A stretch of 63,979 bases of DNA, counting the filler, from Folioceros fuciformis (Eukaryota), in NCBI GenBank assembly GCA_049999805.1. It is 4 parts of 2 records of this genome, joined end to end, with 100 filler letters (N's around TTAATTAATTAA, not from the genome) between each part and the next. Parts side by side here need not be neighbours in the genome. Positions count along the whole stretch, not along the records: positions 1 to 18,022 come from JBNGIO010006373.1; 3 more parts are not named here. One strand, given 5' to 3'. The translations under genes were made by a program, and so were the position numbers. How positions within the stretch are numbered: the stretch's first letter is position 1; the number at the start of each line of letters is the position of its first letter. The notes under the pieces were generated by a model that had not been told where the DNA came from, made no database searches, and saw nothing but the letters and a program-made list of their open reading frames with translations. Shown piece after piece: positions 8,056 through 61,644 of this stretch.

Positions 8056-8420
8056 TGCAATATTAGGTTAATGAGAATACAAAGACATGGTGCAATATTA
8101 GGTTAATGAGAATACAAAGACATGGTATTGGGTTATCACTAGATCACTAAGAAGAATGAGAATACAAAGACATGGTATTGGGGAATGAGAATGCAATTCC
8201 TAGGAATGAGAATACAAAGACATGGTATTGGGGAATTGGGGAATGAGAATGCAATTCCTAGGACAAGACATGGTAGGGGGGAATGAGAATGCAATTCCTA
8301 GGACAAGACATGGTAGGAGGGAATGAGAATGCAATTCCTAAGACAAGACATGGTAGGGGGGAATGAGAATGCAATTCCTAGGACAAGACATGGTAGGGGG
8401 GAATGAGAATACAATTCCTG
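8056..8420. repeat. Minisatellite, ~40-bp unit with variant subunits
   Basis: Repeated gaatgagaatgcaattcctaggacaagacatggtaggggg and the precursor-like variant aatgagaatacaaagacatggt. Confidence 0.9.
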
Positions 8421-9990
8421 GTAGAATTCTTGGGCAAATATAGGGTGTTTTACAGTACAAGTTATTTGCAAAAGCAATGCTATGAGCAATAGTGAGATTA
8501 GAGCTATGCCTAGCTTCATCAGACACAACGCCTTTTATCAAGAAGCTCTTGAATGTCACGTAGTCAATTCCTACCAAAAGCCCATTGATCATTTCGTTTT
8601 GCTATGTGGACTTGTAAGTGATCAAGGAGAGTGGGTAATAGATAGTGATTTTGGGAATAGAAGAGGTATTCTTGCTGCTTTACTAGGGGCTGCAATTCCA
8701 TCTCGATAGATATAGAGCAAAGACATGCAATGTTCATAGAGTAGCGGATAACAAGGCATCAGTTCCATTTGACAATCAAGAGCTGTCCACAAATTTAAAG
8801 CCTCATACCAAGGCATCCAGTGTTATTTGACAAGGAGCTAGCTATAGGGCTGCCTCTAGGAAGGCCCCAGGGCATGATTCCATTATTCTTTGCCAAGGAA
8901 CCAGCTAGGGCATTCAGTGTTCTTTTCTAGCAACTAGCTATAAAGCCAAGAGCTTCAACACTACAAATGATGCAAGTTTATTGTCCTCCGCTTCATCTTG
9001 TGGAACTCATGCAAGCTTAGAGCATGAAAGAAGAAGGAAAAGGGGAAGTCCAAAAATGAAGAATTCAAAACAAAGCCCGTGTGGAAAAATCATCTACTCC
9101 AACCGCACAAGGCCCAACATGGGATTTAGAATATGTAGAGACATTTTTCCTTTGGCGCTAATCCAAGGCGTATAGCAGTAGATAATGGTGCAAAAAAAAA
9201 TAATCTCGTGCTTCGAATTCAACCCATTAGCGACGATATCAAGCTATTAGCAATGATATCATTATTCCAAGTACAAAAGGACAAGGTTCTCTAGTGTTTG
9301 CTAATTCACGAAAAATAAATAGGTTGTCATCTGGGAAGCCATCAAGTTGGTTTCTGATCATTGTTTAACTATCGTACTGCAAATGTTTATCAATGGCTGA
9401 TCCGGTCGCAAAGGAGACTCAAGCTCCAACCTATGGTTCCCTGATTGAGGCTTTCATCATGCCAATAATGAGCTGCTGTTAGGCTCCTATGGACTACGGT
9501 CAGTGTACCTCCAAAGGTCTGTTTGCTAATTTGGGGTTTCTTCCAAGCGTGTTGACCAACGACAGATAGGTGGGATGGGTTGTTGGTCGTAGCAGGTGAG
9601 GAATTGTGCCAAATGTGCAGTGTTGGGGCTTCTAACAAAAGCCAGCATTTTGTTTTTCATTGCAAATATGTACAGGTTGTTTGGAGACAGGTAGGCAAGT
9701 GGCTACAATCCCTCTTCCCTAACATCAATGTTACGATCTCGGATCAGACTACCTTCTTCGACCTCAACAACGTCTCAGGCAAACCGCTATTCCAACAACA
9801 ATGGTGGGGATTGGTGTGGAGCTCATGTCTCTCGAGACTTTGGCTTAATTGGACGGCAATGGTGTATGGGGGTAAAGAGCCAATATCTGTTCAATCCTTA
9901 TTGTGGAGGATATGGGAACATATTTTGATTGCGGCTAAAGGTGTGAGGACAGTCACACCGCATAAGTTCAAGAACAAAGAATGTCGAAAG

Positions 9991-12900
9991 TGTGGGAATA
10001 TGATAATGGTGCAAACCAATTGAGTATTTTATCAATTACATAATTGTATATATACATAAAGACATAAGTAAGTATTAATTATAGCAACTAGACTTATTCT
10101 AGTAGCCAAGAGACATGACCTTTGGCCTAGAGACGCAGCCCTAATGAAAGGGTAAGCTATTTAAATAAAGCCATATACACACACATATTATATAACCAAA
10201 TATATTAAAACTCTAAGTAATAACTCAACACCCTATCTTCAATACTCCCACTTGTTGATTATTGCATAGTGTACAGTCTTCTTCTCTGCGGGCACCTTGT
10301 GAAGACTGCAGCCGTTGAGCTCAAGTGCGTGTGTGTGAACCAGGTTGACAACCCCAGGCAACCGGCCCCAACAGAGCGTAATGGAACAGCTCTGTGTGAA
10401 AGCGGTTCCTTACAGGTGTGCCATGAGCATATTAGCTTGCTTTTACGTTCCCGTCTTCATTCTGTCACGAGTCCTAGAGCGTAGATTGAGGTGCCCAGCC
10501 AGGATGTCTTCATTTTCTGAGTCTGCGATCTGAGTTCACCTACACAACGCCGTGTCTACCAGAGGGATGCTCTAGGCAGGTTCGCACCATCGTCCTGCAC
10601 CCCAGCAGCCTGTAAGCCAGTTGTTTTCTCGAGCTACATTTGATGCCCGCAGGTGTGAGAGAGGTGAGTTTCGCTATGCCTCTGGAGAATCACACCCTCC
10701 AGCACCACCCAGATTTCCCGAGCCCAAAGGTATTTTATCGGAGACAAGAATAGTCTCCCTTGGCTCGGCTCAGTGGCCAGGAAGCCCAATCTGATACGAG
10801 TGCATAACCACAGGTCTGAAGATGATACGAGTATGTGTCCAGAATTTCCAAGGCTTTGACAATCACGTTGTCAGTTTCTACAGTAAGTTGCCTGAATCAT
10901 TTGTGGCAATCTTCCCTTTTGCCTTATTTAGCTTGAACAAGCTCATTTCTGCAGCCCCCGCTTGGATCCTTGTGTCTGTACCTAACCATGTTTGTGTGCT
11001 TGCTCCCACTCACTTCGACAGGGTTTGAGGAACGCCTTGATGATGAAGAGGGCAAGGAGACCAAGGAGAAGATCTTCTACTATGAGAGAAAGGCCAGAAA
11101 TTCACCTCGCTCTGGTGGGGAGACTTTCAGTTCAGAGTCTGTTAGACTTGTCTCATGGGAGAAAATTTCAGACTCTTCCTCTTCAGTTAGCATGAGATCA
11201 TTTGAGTCTCTTGTGGATTATGGCACTGATGGTTCAGATGATGACAGTAACGATTGGGGCTGCACCTAGCTTTATAGGCTAGGGTTTGGTAGGTAGGGCC
11301 TCTGGGTAGCCTTCATGGCTGCCCATGCCCAGACTTCTCATATGTCTGTAGTGTGCATCCCTACTGAGGGGCTTAGTGAACACATCTGCTGGATTTTCTG
11401 CAGTTGGTATATATTCCAGCGTGATTTGTCCTGACTTGATGAGGTCCCTGATAAAATGATACTCCACCTCCACGTGCTTCGTGCGAGAGTGGAATACAGG
11501 ATTTTTAGCCAAGTTCATTGACCCCTGGTTGTCCGTCTTTATCATGGTACAGGTCGGAAGTGGCAACCCAAGTTCCTTGAACATCAATTTGCACCACGCA
11601 ATCTCCTTGGCTGCAGCTGTAAGAACTCGATATTCAGCCTCGGTGCTTGATGTAGCAACGATGGGTTGCTTTTTGCTGGACCAGCGTATAGGTCCTCCTG
11701 CTACCATAACGACGTACCTTGAAACTGATCTTTGTGTATCAACATCTCCTACGTAGTCAGAATCTGTGTATACGTCCAGCTCTAGTGGCACACCAGGAAC
11801 GTGTCTGAACTTGATGCCTATGTTTGATGTTCCTTTTACGTACCTAACAACTCTCTTAACCCTTGTCCAGTGGGTCTGACCAGGATTTTCAAGATATTGC
11901 GAGAGTACGCTAGTGGTGTAGGCAACTTCAGGTCTTGTGGTGTTGGCTGCATAGATTAGTTTCCCAACACCCTTCCTGCAGGGGACTGACCTCATTTCAT
12001 CTATGTCCTTTTGTGTTTCAGGACTCATCGACTTGCTAAACTTTAGTGCACAAGGCAATGGCGTCGCTGTTGGTTTTGCATCCTTCAAGCCCAACTGTTC
12101 AGCACACTCTAACAGGTATCGAGGCTGTGTGAGAGATATAGATTTGCTTTTCCTATCCCTCTGAATAAGGATTCCCAGGCAACTCTGAAGTGCTCCAAGG
12201 TTAGTCATTTCAAACTTGGTAGATAGCAGCTTGTTAACTTTGGTGATGAATGTGGGGCTATTGCAAGATAGAATTAGATCATCAACATATACTGCGAGAT
12301 AGCACAGAACATCACCAGATCTGTAGACGTACAGGCTGCTGTCTGAAACACATTTCACAAATCCAAGTGCACACAGTTCTTCGTCCAGGACAGCATTCCA
12401 CTCTAATGCTGATTGCTTCAAGCCATAGAGGGTTTTTATAAGGCGCAAGACATGATCTTCCTTGACCTTTACTTCATATCCTGCAAGCTGCTGCATATAG
12501 ATCTCCGTGTCCAACTCGCGATGTAGAAAAGCTGTTTTCACATCAAACATATCTAACTCATAGTCTTGATGTGCTGCCAGGGCACAGATTGTGCGAAAAG
12601 TGGCCAGCTTCATCACAGGAGCATATGTTTCGAAGTAATCAAGACCAGGCACTTGCGAAAAGCCAAGAGCTACGAGGCGTGCTTTGTACCTGTCAAAAGT
12701 TCCATCAGCCTTTGTAAGCAAGAGCGTGATGCCTGAAGGGATTGGCAGCTTGACTGTGCCAACAGCAGGGCACACAAGCCTGCTATCGTCACCTAGGTAA
12801 ACAAATCTGTTTTGAACTAACCTGTATGTGACGAATGAACTTCTGTCAAAACAGATGTGCGTTGTTGCACCTGTATCAAGGAACCACTCCTGTATGGGTT

Positions 12901-15310
12901 TGCCTTGAGTATTTGCAAACAAGCATGTGGGGTTAGCAAGAGGGTGAGAAGAAAACTCCCTGGTCCCTACAGTGAGGGCTGCAGCCGAGCCTTGTTTGGT
13001 CACCACAACGTGTGTCTGTGAAGTGGAGTTGCCCTCCTTGCGAGGTACTTCGGACTGCTTCTTTCGACACTCAGTCTCCCAATGGCCTGGAATTTGGCAC
13101 AAGTGGCATTTTCCAGCCTTCTTGGGCTTCTTCTATGTAGAAGCTCCTTGTGAGCTGCTAGCACCTGAGGTATACTGTCTACCTCTGAAGTTGGGCTTTT
13201 TGCCCTTTCCTTTGTTGTTGGTGTACAAAGCTTGCTGTTTACCACAACGCTTAAACTGTCCTCTTGTTACTTCTTCCTGAAGAAGTGCGCCCACTAATTC
13301 TGCAAATATGGTTTTGGGGAGGTCAACACCTGCAGCCTTGGCGATTTTTCGCCCTTGTAGTTGCGAGGTGTTGAAAGAGGTCACGAAATGTGACCAAGAC
13401 TTTGGGAGTGACATCAGAAAATGAAAGATGAGAGCCTGGTCCTTCACACTATCTTGTGCAGCACTTTCAAACTTGGAGACTAGAGATCTAAAGGAAGTCA
13501 AGTGTTTTTCAATAGATTCTCCTTCTTTCATCTTCAAGTTATGTATGTTGTGAAGGGCAGTCATCTGACTTGTGTCATCTGTTCCAGCAAACAGGCTTTG
13601 GAGCCGCGTCCAGATATCGGCTGAGGTCTTGCAACCAGAAGTCTGTCTCAACATGTCAGTCGACAGACCACTCCGAAGGAGGAACTGTGCAGCTTCATCC
13701 TTTGTATTCCAGGCGTCGAGTGCCTTCTATTCAGCAGCTGAAGGGGTACCAATGATCACAGGGACTTTTGATGTTTCATTTACCCAAGGCCACAGCTGCT
13801 TATTTTGAAGTGCTCCCCGCATCCTAAGGACCCAGATGTCATAGTCTGTATCCCTCCGAATCTATCCTTTTCCCTACATCCCTCCCCAACTAGATTAGCG
13901 TCACCTATGTTTTGGGACATCTCTCAGTCCTCCTCATAGTGAGGATGTGATGGATGAATTACTAATGCACCTGTATGACCCTTTGCAGGTTAACAGGTGT
14001 GAGGATTCAAGGAAGAGCTATGATGCTACAAGTGCATCAAGGGTAGGCTGCAACTGCAGCTTGTTCTTCACAGAGGTAAGATGGGTTTTGTACTCTGGTC
14101 AGCCCTGTGCAGGTTGACCATCTCCCTATCTACCTTTTCCTTTATGTTATGTTTCCTAATCTCCCAGCGATTAAAGGAATAGGTCATGCATGATGAACAC
14201 GAGTTTGGATATTCAAATTTATGATGCTTGTTAGTTTTCGTAGCATGCTTACAAGCTGTCCCTTTGATTGCAGGGTTAGCAAGAAGAGCAGGCTTTAACA
14301 AAGCAAGCAATTTGAAATCCAAGTGACCAACTTGCTCCAGCAATGATTGTAAGTCCTTAGAAACAGCAGCAATTTTTCAACATATGTTTTCAAAACGTCT
14401 GTCTACATGTCGCTATTGTGATTCTAGTCTAGAACTTAAATGTGATATGCTGGTGTGCGGTGCGCTACGTTTGTGGTTAGGCAACCCCGAAGATTGCTGT
14501 TACCAACAATAGCAGGTTGCACATTTAGGAGATTTTGAGGAGTCCTCAGTGGAGGGGCAGGTGCATGTTGGTGAAGATCAGCAATTCTTCTTACAACGTT
14601 CACTTGCGCACCAGGTTGTATTTGGCGATTGTGCTATCCAGGCCACATCTGCTCGTTCTGAGGATCGGCCATTCATTTGGCCAGAATTCTTGTATTTTAG
14701 AAAATTCCAAGAAACATTTTATAATTCTATATGATTTTTATAAAGATATTTGCTGCTTCTGGCAGCCGTTCTAACGTACCTGACGACGGATTGCTTTGCA
14801 ACAATCTGGCAATAGATGCGCTAGAACGGGCTCCTAGAAATGCAAAATTCCTATAAACAAATCAAACAAAATAACTACAAAAGGGTTTCTCAAACATTTT
14901 TCTTGATTTCCTATTAGAAATTGTTTTCTAATAAAGAAACAAACACAAAGAACTTCTATGTGCACATCTATATGTGCACAATTTAATGTGCATTCTTGTG
15001 AATGCAATCTGCACCTAGCATGGCTCTGATACCATGTAGGTGCATGGCTATGATACCATGTGGGAATATGATAATGGTGCACACCAATTGAATATTTTAT
15101 TAATTACATTATTGTATATATACATAAAGACATAAGTAAGTATTAATTGTAGCAACTAGACTTATTCTAGTAGCCAAGAGACATGACCTTTGACCTAGGG
15201 ACGCAACCCTAATGAAAGGGTAAGCTATTTAAATAAAGCTATATACACACATATTAATTAACCAGATATATTAAAACTCTAAGTAATAACTCAACACCCT
15301 ATCTTCAATA
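9991..15310 (-). mobile_element. Ty1/Copia LTR retrotransposon, internally deleted (no integrase), both LTRs and TSD intact
   Basis: LTRs 9991-10244 and 15059-15310 (about a dozen differences by eye). 5-bp TSD GAAAG at 9986-9990 and 15311-15315. tRNAi-Met PBS (rc of TGGTATCAGAGC) next to the right LTR, PPT (ctcccac) at 10245. Gag, CCHC knuckle, protease, RT and RNase H on minus. Confidence 0.95.
11279..13860 (-). pseudogene. Copia gag-pol remnant (Gag, CCHC knuckle, PR fused to RT-RNase H)
   Basis: YDIWVLRM, CHLCQIPGHWETEC, WFLDTGATTH, RYKARLVA, LYGLKQ, YVDD, TEAEY, ADVFTK, all in one frame with two in-frame TAG stops in gag. Confidence 0.92.
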
Positions 15311-16163
15311 GAAAGGTGGGCATCCTGGATCTAGTGAGAGAGGGGATTTGGAATCAATCGTGCGCGTGGAGTGGGTAGGTGCTCCTGACCCTTTTTGCTC
15401 ACCGCGGCAAATGGGATACCACCTGCCCCTTCAATTGTATACAATTTAAGGACCCCCTGCTTAGCTACAGTAGGGAAGGGAGAGCCACCGGGGAGAGCTC
15501 TCTCTTCTCGTCCTATCTCGTCCCCCTATTCTCTCCACATCCTTTATAATCTGAATTTTCTTCCACAAAAAATAAATAAATAGGTTGTTTGGAGTGAAAG
15601 ACAGTAATGAGAGATCCCATTTTGCACAAATGTTGTTACAAGCTTAGAGTTTTTGACAAGTTGGTCACAAGGGTTGTGTTACATGGATGGCAATGAATGT
15701 CTTGAGTTTCGTTTGATGGAAGGAGCTATAACACTGTCTAACCTAGATGGGCGGATTCCANNNNNNNNNNNNNNNNNNNNNNNNNNNNNNNNNNNNNNNN
15801 NNNNNNNNNNNNNNNNNNNNNNNNNNNNNNNNNNNNNNNNNNNNNNNNNNNNNNNNNNNNTAACACTGTCTAACCTAGATGGGCGGATTCCATGAAGCCC
15901 GTTTTGCACATTTCAAATTTGTTGCGATCCGCGTTTATTATCTACAAATCATCTGATTTAACAAACAATGACTCCTTCGACATGTTATCTAAATTTTTGT
16001 TCCTATAAACCTCAATGAAACAAACATTTCTGAAGAAAGCTTTTTGCGTTGTCTCTGCAAAATTTGATTTTCCGCAATCAAAAGCATATGGTGCGCCGGC
16101 ACAATTTTCAAAAGTACTTTAAATTTCGTGACAACAAATTTCAAATTAAGTGAAGTCTCAACC

Positions 16164-17860
16164 TTAAACAAAAACAGGGTCATCCTGGTTCGCTTCGGAG
16201 TCCACAACCACATCCAAATCATGCAAACGATGCGCATCAGTTTCTGCAAAGTCATCAGCACCCACGCGAAGCATTGAGAAGTTCGGGTCCTCTGTAGTTT
16301 GAGGCGGTAGAGTGCAATTTTCATCCCAGATAGTGATGGCGTACAGGTCTTCCGCGGGCCTATCATCAATCTGATGTATAACCTCTCCTTTCTTGCCCAA
16401 CATACTGAAGACCATCAGCTTGCGATCGATGCTCCCATCACCGCACACTTCCTTCGCCCAAAACTTTGATGGGCCTCGCATAAAAGACTCCGTGGTTATC
16501 TTCTCATCTGCGTCCGGTAAGGACCCTAGCCCAATAATTCGTTGTATGATGTAGGATGTGCACCTCACATCCACATCAATCGCAACCGCATGCCTTCCAC
16601 CCTGCACTACACTTTGGAGCAGAGAACCAGACCCTGCGCATGCGTCCACCACCCAATCCCCCTCACACGAAAACATGTTAATCAGCATTCGCATCAAGCC
16701 CAATGGTTTTTGGTAAGGCGAGACGACATGCACATCTGTTGAATGAAACAGGTGCTTCTTCACCACCGCTCCATGCCTGATAACCCTTGGGAGCAAAAAT
16801 CCGTGATTCGCGAACAGTGCAGCCTTCGATTCTTGAGCCTCCATGTGCACTGCATTTCCAACAGTGACATACTCCATTGTTTCCACTACTCTTGCGTTCG
16901 GGGGTATATTCGTCTTCTCCCATACTAAACTCTGGATGCTCCCCTTCTTGCACCATGGCCGTAGGGCCTCCCTGGCTTCCGAAATCATGTCCACTCCGTG
17001 CATTAGGATAATCTATAAATATTGCTCAAGGTGCATTCACTGAACCCTCCGAGCATGTCTTCCAAATCCGCCACCTTCAACTACTTGTCAAACTTGTGTC
17101 GCTGTAAGCCCCGAGGCAGATCTGCAAATAGCAGGGTGTAGGGTCGCTTGACAAGGAATGCCTTCATTTCAAGCACATTCCGTTGAATTACTTGGTACTT
17201 CACCTTTGAGTTACTTGCTGGAACTCGAAAATATGACAGCCCTGTGTCCATATCTGCTGCCGCCAAAATTTTTTTCTCTTCCTCCATCCTTTTCTAGTTT
17301 TTCGCCGAATAGAAAAAATCCAAGAAAGGCTTCGGCAGGGACTCTAAGTCTGCGATTTCTGAGGGTTTCTGCAACCAGAATGATGAAAATTAGTCTGGCT
17401 ACAAATCAACCCTATTGTAGCCTGCTCGGGTCTTCAGTGCGCTGGTAGAGCGGCGCATTGCACCTGCACTCAGTAGGAGTGCGTCGGTCTACCGGCGCAT
17501 TCCTACGGTATGATGCGGATTAGTAACAAGAAAGAAGAACACAAATACTTACGACTTTGGTGAATGTAGTCTGGAATTTGAGGAGATGGCCGTCTTCTGT
17601 GTGCTTTGGGTACATCTCTTCGGCCTCTTCAAATGTGTCGCACTTCGTCGCCAATCGGAAGGCATGTTGGATGAGATGAATCTTCTTCTTCTTTCCTACT
17701 TCAGTGTCCATGTCATGCAGTTGCAGCTTCCCCTGCATCACTTTCTGAGTCACCGCTATGAGCATCTCCTCTCCCTTCTCACCTGTGGGGACCCCTTGAA
17801 ATGCTCTCCATTGCGTGCCTTGCATAGCTCCTGGCCTCCTGCTGCTATCCTCTTTTATCC
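16164..17860 (-). pseudogene. Beta-class N4-cytosine/N6-adenine DNA methyltransferase-like gene, spliced, disrupted
   Basis: Order motif IV-like FADLPRG, then LVWEK..., EYVTVG, then YQKPLGLMRMLINMFSCEGDWVVDACAGSGS...GRHAVAID (motifs X/I-II). Intron donor GTAAGT at 17552 and likely acceptor at 17369. Two TAG stops and one frameshift (~17010). Confidence 0.8.
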
Positions 17861-18022
17861 AGCATGTGATTCACACGTACGTTGGCCTTCTTCCAAGAGT
17901 TCTGTACTTGCAGCTGGACAACACGGCAAGAGAGAACAAAAACGCTTTGTTGTTTTCATATTTGAATATGTTAGGGGAGAAAGGAATCTTCAAGAAGGTG
18001 AAGGTGGGTTTTTTACTAGTGG
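17859..18022 (+). mobile_element. DDD/E transposase fragment, Sola-like (DUF7869-like)
   Basis: LPRVLYLQLDNTARENKNALLFSYLNML..KGIFKKVKVGFLLV, cut by a gap just where GHTH is expected. Superfamily assignment is from motif memory. Confidence 0.7.
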
Positions 18023-18122
18023 NNNNNNNNNNNNNNNNNNNNNNNNNNNNNNNNNNNNNNNNNNNNTTAATTAATTAANNNNNNNNNNNNNNNNNNNNNN
18101 NNNNNNNNNNNNNNNNNNNNNN

Positions 18123-47703: not shown

Positions 47704-47803
47704 NNNNNNNNNNNNNNNNNNNNNNNNNNNNNNNNNNNNNNNNNNNNTTAATTAATTAANNNNNNNNNNNNNNNNNNNNNNNNNNNNNNNNNNNNNNNNN
47801 NNN

Positions 47804-61201: not shown

Positions 61202-61644
61202 TAAATATAATCAGCATATGTATNNNNNNNNNNNNNNNNNNNNNNNNNNNNNNNNNNNNNNNNNNNNTTAATTAATTAANNNNNNNNNNNNNNNNNNNNN
61301 NNNNNNNNNNNNNNNNNNNNNNNTACTTGCGCACCTCCTGCCAAAGAGGTCTGTGTCTCATCTGATGGATTTGCGCTCTCTAGTGGGCTGTTTGCAATTT
61401 CCTGCACATTCTCACTCGACAGGTTTGATCAGTGTGCACCCCTCAGATCTCTGAGACTCAGCCTACTGTAGAAAAGAATCTAGAGCGACAGACCGAGGTC
61501 AAGTTACACTGATATCCCAGTGTCTAATCACACACCAGGGCACTAGCGTAGCCAACCCGGTCCGTCGCTCACACAACGGTCAGTCCGTAGATTTGCACAA
61601 AGCATGTCAAAAATTCATACTCAAAATTCAGACTCTCTAAAACA

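Follow-up and report, generated by a model that had tools for sequence, protein, structure and literature searches.

Results

Two truncated genes at the end of a contig

We analysed a window of 63,979 nucleotides (the whole 64-kb stretch, filler included) from Folioceros fuciformis (GenBank assembly GCA_049999805.1), in which the remnants of two genes lie head-to-head at positions 16164-18022, the extreme end of one contig (JBNGIO010006373.1). On the minus strand, at 16164-17853, is a pseudogene of a beta-class amino-DNA-methyltransferase (Pfam family PF01555), referred to below as the methylase; on the plus strand is a piece of a gene whose product contains the domain DUF7869 and is a candidate transposase. 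The relevant features are listed here (HTH, helix-turn-helix; SAM, S-adenosylmethionine).

16164-17341, minus strand: exon 2, encoding the beta-class methyltransferase domain and an acidic C-terminal tail
16626-16715, minus strand: YQKP and the SAM-binding motif I (D-x3-G-S-G)
17108-17122, minus strand: motif IV variant D-L-P-R-G
17342-17552, minus strand: spliceosomal intron, donor GTAAGT at 17552-17547, in-phase AG at 17343-17342 as the probable acceptor
17473-17506, no strand: imperfect 34-nt palindrome within the intron
17553-17853, minus strand: remnant of exon 1, the end of a ParB-type HTH/helical region
17851-18022, plus strand: internal fragment of a DUF7869 gene (putatively RNase H-like, DDE-type) with the middle acidic motif

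The original prediction had placed a prokaryote-type, beta-class methylase with permuted motif order at this locus, and our analysis agrees with it. The 282-amino-acid open reading frame (ORF) at 16164-17012 on the minus strand matches PF01555 (N6_N4_Mtase) with 37.8 bits (E 2.5e-9; gathering cut-off 26.7) and, among beta-class enzymes of solved structure, matches 2zie and M.RsrI (1eg2) with E values of 0.0016-0.0068. A hidden Markov model (HMM) of the long relatives finds three collinear minus-strand pieces, at 17870-17523 (E 5e-11), 17293-17084 (E 9e-4) and 17012-16167 (E 3e-30). Along that strand DLPRG (17122-17108) comes first, then YQKP (16715-16704) and then D-x3-GSG (16646-16626). The columns Y100, Q101, K102, P103, D123, G127 and G129 of alignments A1 and A2 are invariant or near-invariant in this region; in A1, G127 is near-invariant and G129 of the SAM-binding motif is invariant.

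This copy of the methylase is dead and cannot be translated as a whole. The two stops, the single frameshift and the spliceosomal intron that had been proposed were all recovered by three-frame reading. The in-frame stops lie at 17294-17296 and 17081-17083; the first is TAG, and by manual reading the relative P0002 has Trp at the matching position. The frameshift, near 17011-17015, is a 1-nt deletion, and other copies in the same organism have one extra C exactly there. The acceptor of the intron, AG at 17343-17342, is deduced from the reading phase. An intron interrupts the metagenome relatives L006 and L007 at this domain boundary too, and introns with palindromes separate the HTH/helical exon from the methylase exon in the F. 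fuciformis copy and in L005-L009. Upstream of the intron the original prediction had seen a helical N-terminal domain that it could not recognise; such a domain is present, but it aligns with the end of a ParB-like/HTH part (alignment A3). It corresponds to family HMM positions 307-395 (E 5e-11) and, by tblastn, to residues 405-477 of P0013 and 1321-1408 of P0019. The ParB-like N-domain is missing upstream and only the last ~100 residues of the ParB-HTH part are left: homology to the methylase begins at about residue 405 of the 789-amino-acid relative P0013, the 5' part being absent.

The other gene is also incomplete. Positions 17800-18022 on the plus strand match PF25273 (DUF7869) with 58.6 bits (E 8.3e-16; cut-off 26) over profile positions 44-100 of 192, and the fragment is 56-75% identical to 14 proteins (P0151-P0164) of up to 867 amino acids (HMM E 1.6e-30). 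Its homology begins at about residue 395 of the 867-amino-acid relative P0162; the 5' part is missing beyond a breakpoint, at which loose ends of other copies also lie (17851), and the 3' part is cut by the contig end at 18022, where an artificial linker of N and TTAATTAATTAA follows. The expectation that both genes would lack their 5' ends is thus correct, with the qualification that the stop of the transposase piece at 18022 is that of the contig only. Neither the DUF7869 HMM nor tblastn found a further DUF7869 piece in the window.

Relatives of the DUF7869 protein share three acidic motifs, with D135 and D177 (P0158 numbering) invariant or near-invariant in alignment A4 and a consensus DGMDQ; the F. 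fuciformis fragment holds the middle motif only. The best Foldseek matches of a structural model of P0158 were NurA, PIWI, retroviral (foamy-virus) integrase, the IstA transposase and RNase HI, and it is reasonable to read the protein as a putative transposase on the basis of this model. No solved structure was matched by sequence with the DUF7869 alignment profile, a viral-contig scan with the DUF7869 protein P0155 gave no match, and the literature that we searched makes no mention of DUF7869 by name. Sola, the group to which the transposase piece had originally been likened, was without a Pfam model in 2017, to judge from excerpts of PMC5751038. Residues ~420-530 of P0158 form a beta-rich C-terminal module, also present in P0162, P0159, L006 and L010, whose model resembles a BAH domain (6vil_D, probability 0.97, 98 columns). 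This modelled resemblance hints at chromatin-guided targeting.

A eukaryotic family with an unusual motif IV

An exhaustive HMMER search returned 205 relatives of the methylase at E <= 1e-3, of which 14 reached E <= 1e-10 but not one reached E <= 1e-30, and word-indexed protein searches with the 282-amino-acid ORF gave no match at near or longer lengths. The PF01555 cut-off was passed by 18 of 20 relatives scanned, the others being P0017 (25.0 bits) and P0066 (20.6 bits). In a tree made by quick search and rooted only at its midpoint, 31 rows form a eukaryotic ('PYQKP') group with a Shimodaira-Hasegawa-like approximate likelihood ratio test (SH-aLRT) support of 100, set against 15 bacterial or phage-like rows. 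The F. fuciformis copy groups with P0001-P0005 in a six-row subgroup (SH-aLRT 97), and its long end branch (1.38) fits a pseudogene. By this tree the methylase is a member of a eukaryotic family, whose named members come from Chara braunii (3), Adiantum nelumboides (3), Ginkgo biloba (1) and Riccia sorocarpa (1). A viral-contig scan with the methylase alignment gave four weak C-terminal matches, and the large Atlas clusters closest to P0002 consist of phage methylases (score 0.94), which we take as a lead only.

The long forms of the family have an N-terminal ParB-like domain and an HTH before the methylase, the ParB likeness being weak. When the N-terminal exon was modelled (mean predicted local distance difference test score, pLDDT, 59.6), all 11 best Foldseek matches (E 2e-3 to 3e-2) were to ParB, Noc or Spo0J. 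One Chara braunii protein, P0019 (GBG86584.1, 1825 amino acids), contains two complete ParB-methylase units in tandem with a low-complexity acidic stretch between them; it may represent two adjacent element copies fused by annotation.

The consensus of motif IV in amino-methyltransferases is (D/N/S)-P-P-(Y/F/W/H). Among the 17 rows of alignment A1 that cover the motif IV region, 12 have D-x-P-Y-G, three have DLPRG, one has DIPHG and in one the motif is lost (DIPST). DLPRG is common to all three clade relatives that cover the region (P0001, P0002 and P0004). Because these three proteins fall in the same subgroup as the F. fuciformis copy, the Arg of DLPRG is an old and retained trait of the clade and not a decay product of a Trp codon. 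It had been pointed out that DLPR is one transition away from DLPW. DLPW was rejected as the ancestor, given that DLPRG is found clade-wide and that the wider family has D-x-P-Y-G. Since the stacking Tyr of motif IV is replaced by Arg in the DLPRG clade, catalysis may be altered or lost in its members while binding of SAM and DNA is kept.

The methylase is multi-copy and the junction is a private breakpoint

Three sequencing runs (X1, X2 and X3), all from one sample of the same organism and possibly the data from which the assembly itself was made, yielded 362, 338 and 166 contigs, respectively, on positions 15861-18022 at a likeness of at least 85% (range 85-99%), with up to 17 distinct contigs at single positions. 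Internal-deletion derivatives were found among these contigs, for example with joins 16589-17719 and 16967-17364. A fourth run, X4, tentatively labelled as RNA, gave no contig on these positions, a result that has no bearing on expression. The methylase family is multi-copy in this genome, because hundreds of contigs and deletion derivatives from the same organism match the stretch. A second, older and degenerate copy is present on the same contig.

8425-8709, plus strand: methylase relic (tblastn E 6e-7; HMM E 1.8e-5; also evident from the ORF text)

This relic, 7.5 kb from the main copy and in the opposite orientation, has kept YQKP and lost motif I, and short tandem-like repeats lie alongside it at about 8140-8600. 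Apart from this relic and the three pieces of the main copy, the methylase HMM found nothing in the window. These data bear on whether the methylase is, or formerly was, a domesticated host gene and not the gene of a mobile element. Annotation as single genes in Chara, Ginkgo, Adiantum and Riccia would suit domestication, but hundreds of contigs at 85-99% likeness, the deletion derivatives, two decayed copies within 8 kb and several paralogues per named genome make it the least probable of the explanations that we considered.

The head-to-head abutment of the two genes is present in the sequence, although the junction, originally put at about 17860, lies at 17851-17853, where the methylase and DUF7869 pieces meet with the 5' parts of both cut. 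To the right of 17851, three X1 contigs match the F. fuciformis copy; to the left of it they differ, and manual in-frame reading of the differing sequence gives transposase, with nine of ten residues as in P0151. On the other side, a 376-nt contig that matches 17604-17853 continues for 129 nt unlike the F. fuciformis copy. The junction is a private rearrangement between truncated copies, because copies elsewhere in this organism extend beyond 17851-17853 from either side.

Such a junction would also arise at 17852 if the assembly had fused two collapsed repeats into a chimera. Both sides are high-copy, and 15861-18022 is a short segment between a gap of 100 N (15761-15860) and the contig end, with an identical stretch of 32 nt on either edge of the gap. 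Yet one 118-nt X3 contig, among the contigs listed, bridges the junction (17818-17929, with 10 other letters), and read depth in the bin 17832-17904 is nonzero in all three runs, evidence that may come from the assembly's own data. We therefore consider a chimera very improbable. The 32-nt stretch bordering the gap on both sides indicates that the two flanking pieces probably overlap, without loss of sequence.

Run X3 showed C>T changes (56) and G>A changes (84) in strong excess on 15861-18022, as in a bisulfite-like base-conversion library.

A conserved gene neighbourhood in another eukaryote

A pattern scan of metagenome contigs gave 32 loci, six of which (L005-L010) encode long-form relatives; these six are mutually 67-81% identical at the DNA level. 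When five DUF7869 proteins were compared by tblastn with 36 loci, they matched only L006, L007, L008 and L010. A DUF7869 gene lies tail-to-tail with the methylase, on the opposite strand and 317-470 bp past its stop, in all four of the contigs that extend more than 370 bp beyond that stop. L010 has an uninterrupted DUF7869 frame of 672 amino acids; in L007 only 28 DUF7869 residues are present before the contig ends. The original prediction held that a transposon family carries the methylase, and this idea gains from the conserved DUF7869 neighbourhood. The F. fuciformis junction itself does not display the arrangement of the family: the conserved order is tail-to-tail, and other copies diverge at 17851-17853. 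Simple inversion of a convergent pair was rejected as the origin of the junction on our own reasoning that strand and order do not fit.

A third ORF (ORF1) is found upstream of the ParB-methylase gene at 138-1238 in L007 and at 655-1266 in L005. The two versions are 38% identical over 212 amino acids and have no Pfam match, and the F. fuciformis stretch has no counterpart. The gene order in intact relatives, where readable, is ORF1, ParB-methylase and the convergent DUF7869 gene.

The methylase exon is open in all six contigs. The ratio of nonsynonymous to synonymous substitution (dN/dS) is 0.12 for L008 against L009, the sole unsaturated pair; the remaining pairs have proportions of nonsynonymous differences (pN) of 0.15-0.27 and of synonymous differences (pS) that are saturated at 0.75-0.85. 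The methylase in these contigs is under purifying selection. The ParB-like exon has been hit in L005 (stop at 2468-2470) and in L008 (frame change at about 1151-1163), the methylase exon being still open in each.

All of the non-coding stretches of L005-L010 (upstream region, intron and intergenic spacer) contain arrays of lineage-specific palindromes of 16-38 bp. There are 39 sites of one type in L005, L006, L008, L009 and L010 and 20 of another in L007; 58 of the 59 sites fall outside the marked coding parts, and shuffled sequences gave a mean of <= 0.2 per locus. Within 15861-18022 of F. fuciformis, the intron palindrome at 17473-17506 is the sole dyad to reach 22 nt in length and 80% in symmetry. 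It has a degenerate direct copy at 17436-17459, and its 24-nt motif occurs twice in the window against 0 expected. The metagenome palindrome types, A and B, are not found in positions 13200-18022 of the F. fuciformis stretch. The presence of a ParB-type HTH beside palindrome arrays suggests that binding may be self-addressed.

Two further explanations of the F. fuciformis locus have to be set against this neighbourhood. One is that the genes are natively divergent in the F. fuciformis lineage and that the copy has suffered an internal deletion of both 5' parts and of a shared promoter, as abortive gap repair often yields in DNA transposons. It would explain why both genes are cut at a single point without filler; other internal-deletion derivatives occur in the same organism (the joins 16589-17719 and 16967-17364), and no DUF7869 piece is found downstream of the methylase stop in this stretch. 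Against it, the only arrangement seen elsewhere is convergent (four of four informative contigs), and the methylase stop is followed after 400 bp by the N100 gap, so that a downstream gene may be hidden or lost. We regard native divergence as unlikely, though it is the strongest of the alternatives. The other explanation is that two unrelated repeats met by chance, through nesting or rearrangement, and that the methylase is not borne by a DUF7869 element in this organism. The region is rich in repeats, with a copia-type polyprotein at 11279-13132 and the relic at 8425-8709, and neither side of the junction is the end of an element; other copies diverge there. A chance meeting of these two families is nevertheless improbable, because the same two families are adjacent in four diverged contigs of another eukaryote.

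Discussion

Our preferred reading is that a multi-copy mobile-element gene has left a dead, truncated copy at the F. fuciformis locus and that this copy has been joined, at a secondary breakpoint, to a truncated copy of its usual transposase gene; we give this a probability of roughly 70%. Several findings weigh against it or against its parts. The whole case for linkage comes from one metagenome, and hence from one organism or community, whose methylases are only ~32% identical to that of F. fuciformis. As no contig spans a whole element, neither terminal inverted repeats nor target-site duplications came to light for any of them; from F. fuciformis itself, no second copy of either gene is readable with its neighbour. 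As to the methylase, the second Pro of motif IV is present in none of the 17 rows of A1 that cover the region, and in the F. fuciformis clade the motif has Arg in place of an aromatic residue, so that D-L-P-R misses the consensus. A pattern scan of prokaryote genomes gave 32 loci that matched only residues 99-190, the C-terminal SAM-binding part, and no full-length prokaryotic relative. The ParB assignment faces a Pfam HTH_ParB match (E 8.6e-4, 19.9 bits) that lies under the cut-off of 22.6, a match to Spo0J (6sdk) at E 0.13, and the failure of all 384 Foldseek matches of the N-terminal exon model to reach E <= 0.001. Likewise, none of the 500 Foldseek matches of the P0158 model (mean pLDDT 67.4) reaches E <= 0.001; because of this, the transposase is a reading rather than a demonstrated fact.

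If the locus is indeed the relic of such an element, a mechanism can be sketched for its intact relatives. The intact gene would encode a ParB-like N-domain with an HTH, a helical linker and a SAM-dependent amino-DNA-methyltransferase of the phage/bacterial beta class. The ParB-HTH part would bind the palindromes of the element, as ParB binds parS, and in doing so would recruit the methylase to the DNA of the element itself, where it would then set its mark. As motif IV starts with Asp, the marked base would probably be adenine, at N6. Such a mark could counter silencing by the host or time transposition. We offer this scheme tentatively, as the likeliest mechanism, and would put its chances at somewhat below even. 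A broader proposal is more doubtful still: that a transposon family whose DDE-type transposase is the DUF7869 protein (with its BAH-like C-terminal part) is spread through the streptophytes, Chara, liverworts, ferns and Ginkgo included, and carries a phage-derived ParB-methylase fusion together with dense arrays of parS-like palindromes. Such a module would be epigenetic and self-addressed, writing N6-methyladenine (6mA) or N4-methylcytosine (4mC) on its own element in lineages in which amino-methylation is held to be scarce, with one clade, that of the F. fuciformis copy, having exchanged Tyr for Arg in the course of acquiring a new or non-catalytic role.

The comparisons that follow rely on excerpts of the sources cited. 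The closest known system is found in red algae, the methylases being compared by description only. In Bostrychia moritziana and other Florideophyceae, DNA transposons carry a 'Plavaka accessory gene' (PAG) cassette, PAG1-3, that includes a PF01555 methylase of the N6-adenine type, a ParB-like protein and tandem arrays of inverted repeats, and the cassette moves between transposon superfamilies (bioRxiv 10.1101/2025.02.11.637652). The authors propose that the ParB-like PAG protein acts on its own element, which it would bind and modify. The streptophyte family resembles the cassette in its PF01555 methylase, in its ParB-like part (weakly supported here), in its inverted-repeat arrays and in having a first ORF that is unknown in both. 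In the PAG cassette, however, SET is the fusion partner of the methylase and a 2-oxoglutarate (2OG) oxygenase that of ParB, whereas in the streptophyte family ParB is fused directly to the methylase; no Pfam match to a SET domain was found in the 25 relatives and translated exons scanned. The carriers differ too, being Plavaka, Mutator, Zisupton and Fanzor in the red algae, while the streptophyte family adjoins a DUF7869 gene. Methylase-carrying transposons are thus already in print, and the streptophyte counterpart differs, as far as those excerpts go, in its fusion, its neighbour gene and its host. We found no description of a ParB-methylase family in streptophytes in the literature searched, the reach of which did not extend to supplements.

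The beta-class N6_N4 methylases of phages and bacteria, including those at ParB-terminase loci, belong to the same Pfam family and share the permuted order and the SAM motif; association with ParB is typical of the phage enzymes (Iyer et al. 2016, PMC4738411). The streptophyte family stands apart from these in having D-x-P-Y-G or DLPRG and not DPPY, a spliceosomal intron, eukaryotic hosts and a separate group in the tree. A looser parallel is provided by retrotransposons carrying DNMTs (de Mendoza et al. 2018, PMC5890265) or Dam-type DAMs (bioRxiv 10.64898/2026.05.21.726589), which are likewise mobile elements with a prokaryote-derived DNA methyltransferase, presumably for the management of their own chromatin. 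Those enzymes are of the C5 or Dam (NPPY, D12-class) type and reside in long terminal repeat (LTR) or DIRS elements, whereas here a beta-class PF01555 enzyme is next to a DDE-type gene, and the passages of the latter report that concern streptophytes describe DAM-LTR elements as absent from Streptophyta. MpDN4MT1a/b of Marchantia (bioRxiv 2021.02.12.428880) and the bdelloid N4CMT (PMC8885841) are also bacterial-type amino-methyltransferases in eukaryotic nuclei, one of them from a plant. They have TSPPY or SPPY and are host genes with known roles, in contrast to the streptophyte family with its Asp-start motif IV, its many copies and its link to a mobile element. We rejected an assignment to the DN4MT1/N4CMT type because the streptophyte proteins have DLPRG or D-x-P-Y-G in place of S-P-P-Y (TSPPY in bioRxiv 2021.02.12.428880, as excerpted).

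The F. fuciformis locus is a dead and rearranged relic, of value for pointing to a ParB-methylase family that extends across the streptophytes and is linked, in at least one other eukaryote, to a DUF7869 transposase-like gene and to arrays of palindromes. Transposons with their own DNA-modifying enzymes illustrate how mobile DNA manipulates the chromatin of its host. In plants, 6mA and 4mC are disputed or limited to special cases such as the sperm of Marchantia. A repeated, selected and ParB-targeted amino-methylase, if one does exist in charophytes, liverworts, ferns and a gymnosperm, would give rise both to 6mA or 4mC marks and to confusing signals in surveys of them. It would also be a plausible reservoir for domesticated methylation writers, and would offer a compact, naturally targeted methylase, together with its binding sites, that can be tested in the laboratory. 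DUF7869, a Pfam domain of unknown function, gains a context linked to function.

Other features of the window

The window consists of separate contigs strung together by three artificial linkers of one build, each consisting of N44, TTAATTAATTAA and N44.

18023-18122, no strand: artificial contig linker, with a different contig beyond it
47704-47803, no strand: artificial linker of the same build
61224-61323, no strand: artificial linker of the same build

On the same contig as the two truncated genes, a 617-amino-acid open frame at 11279-13132 on the minus strand was judged from its text, without a profile search, to be a Ty1/copia-type polyprotein (the reverse transcriptase and RNase H part).

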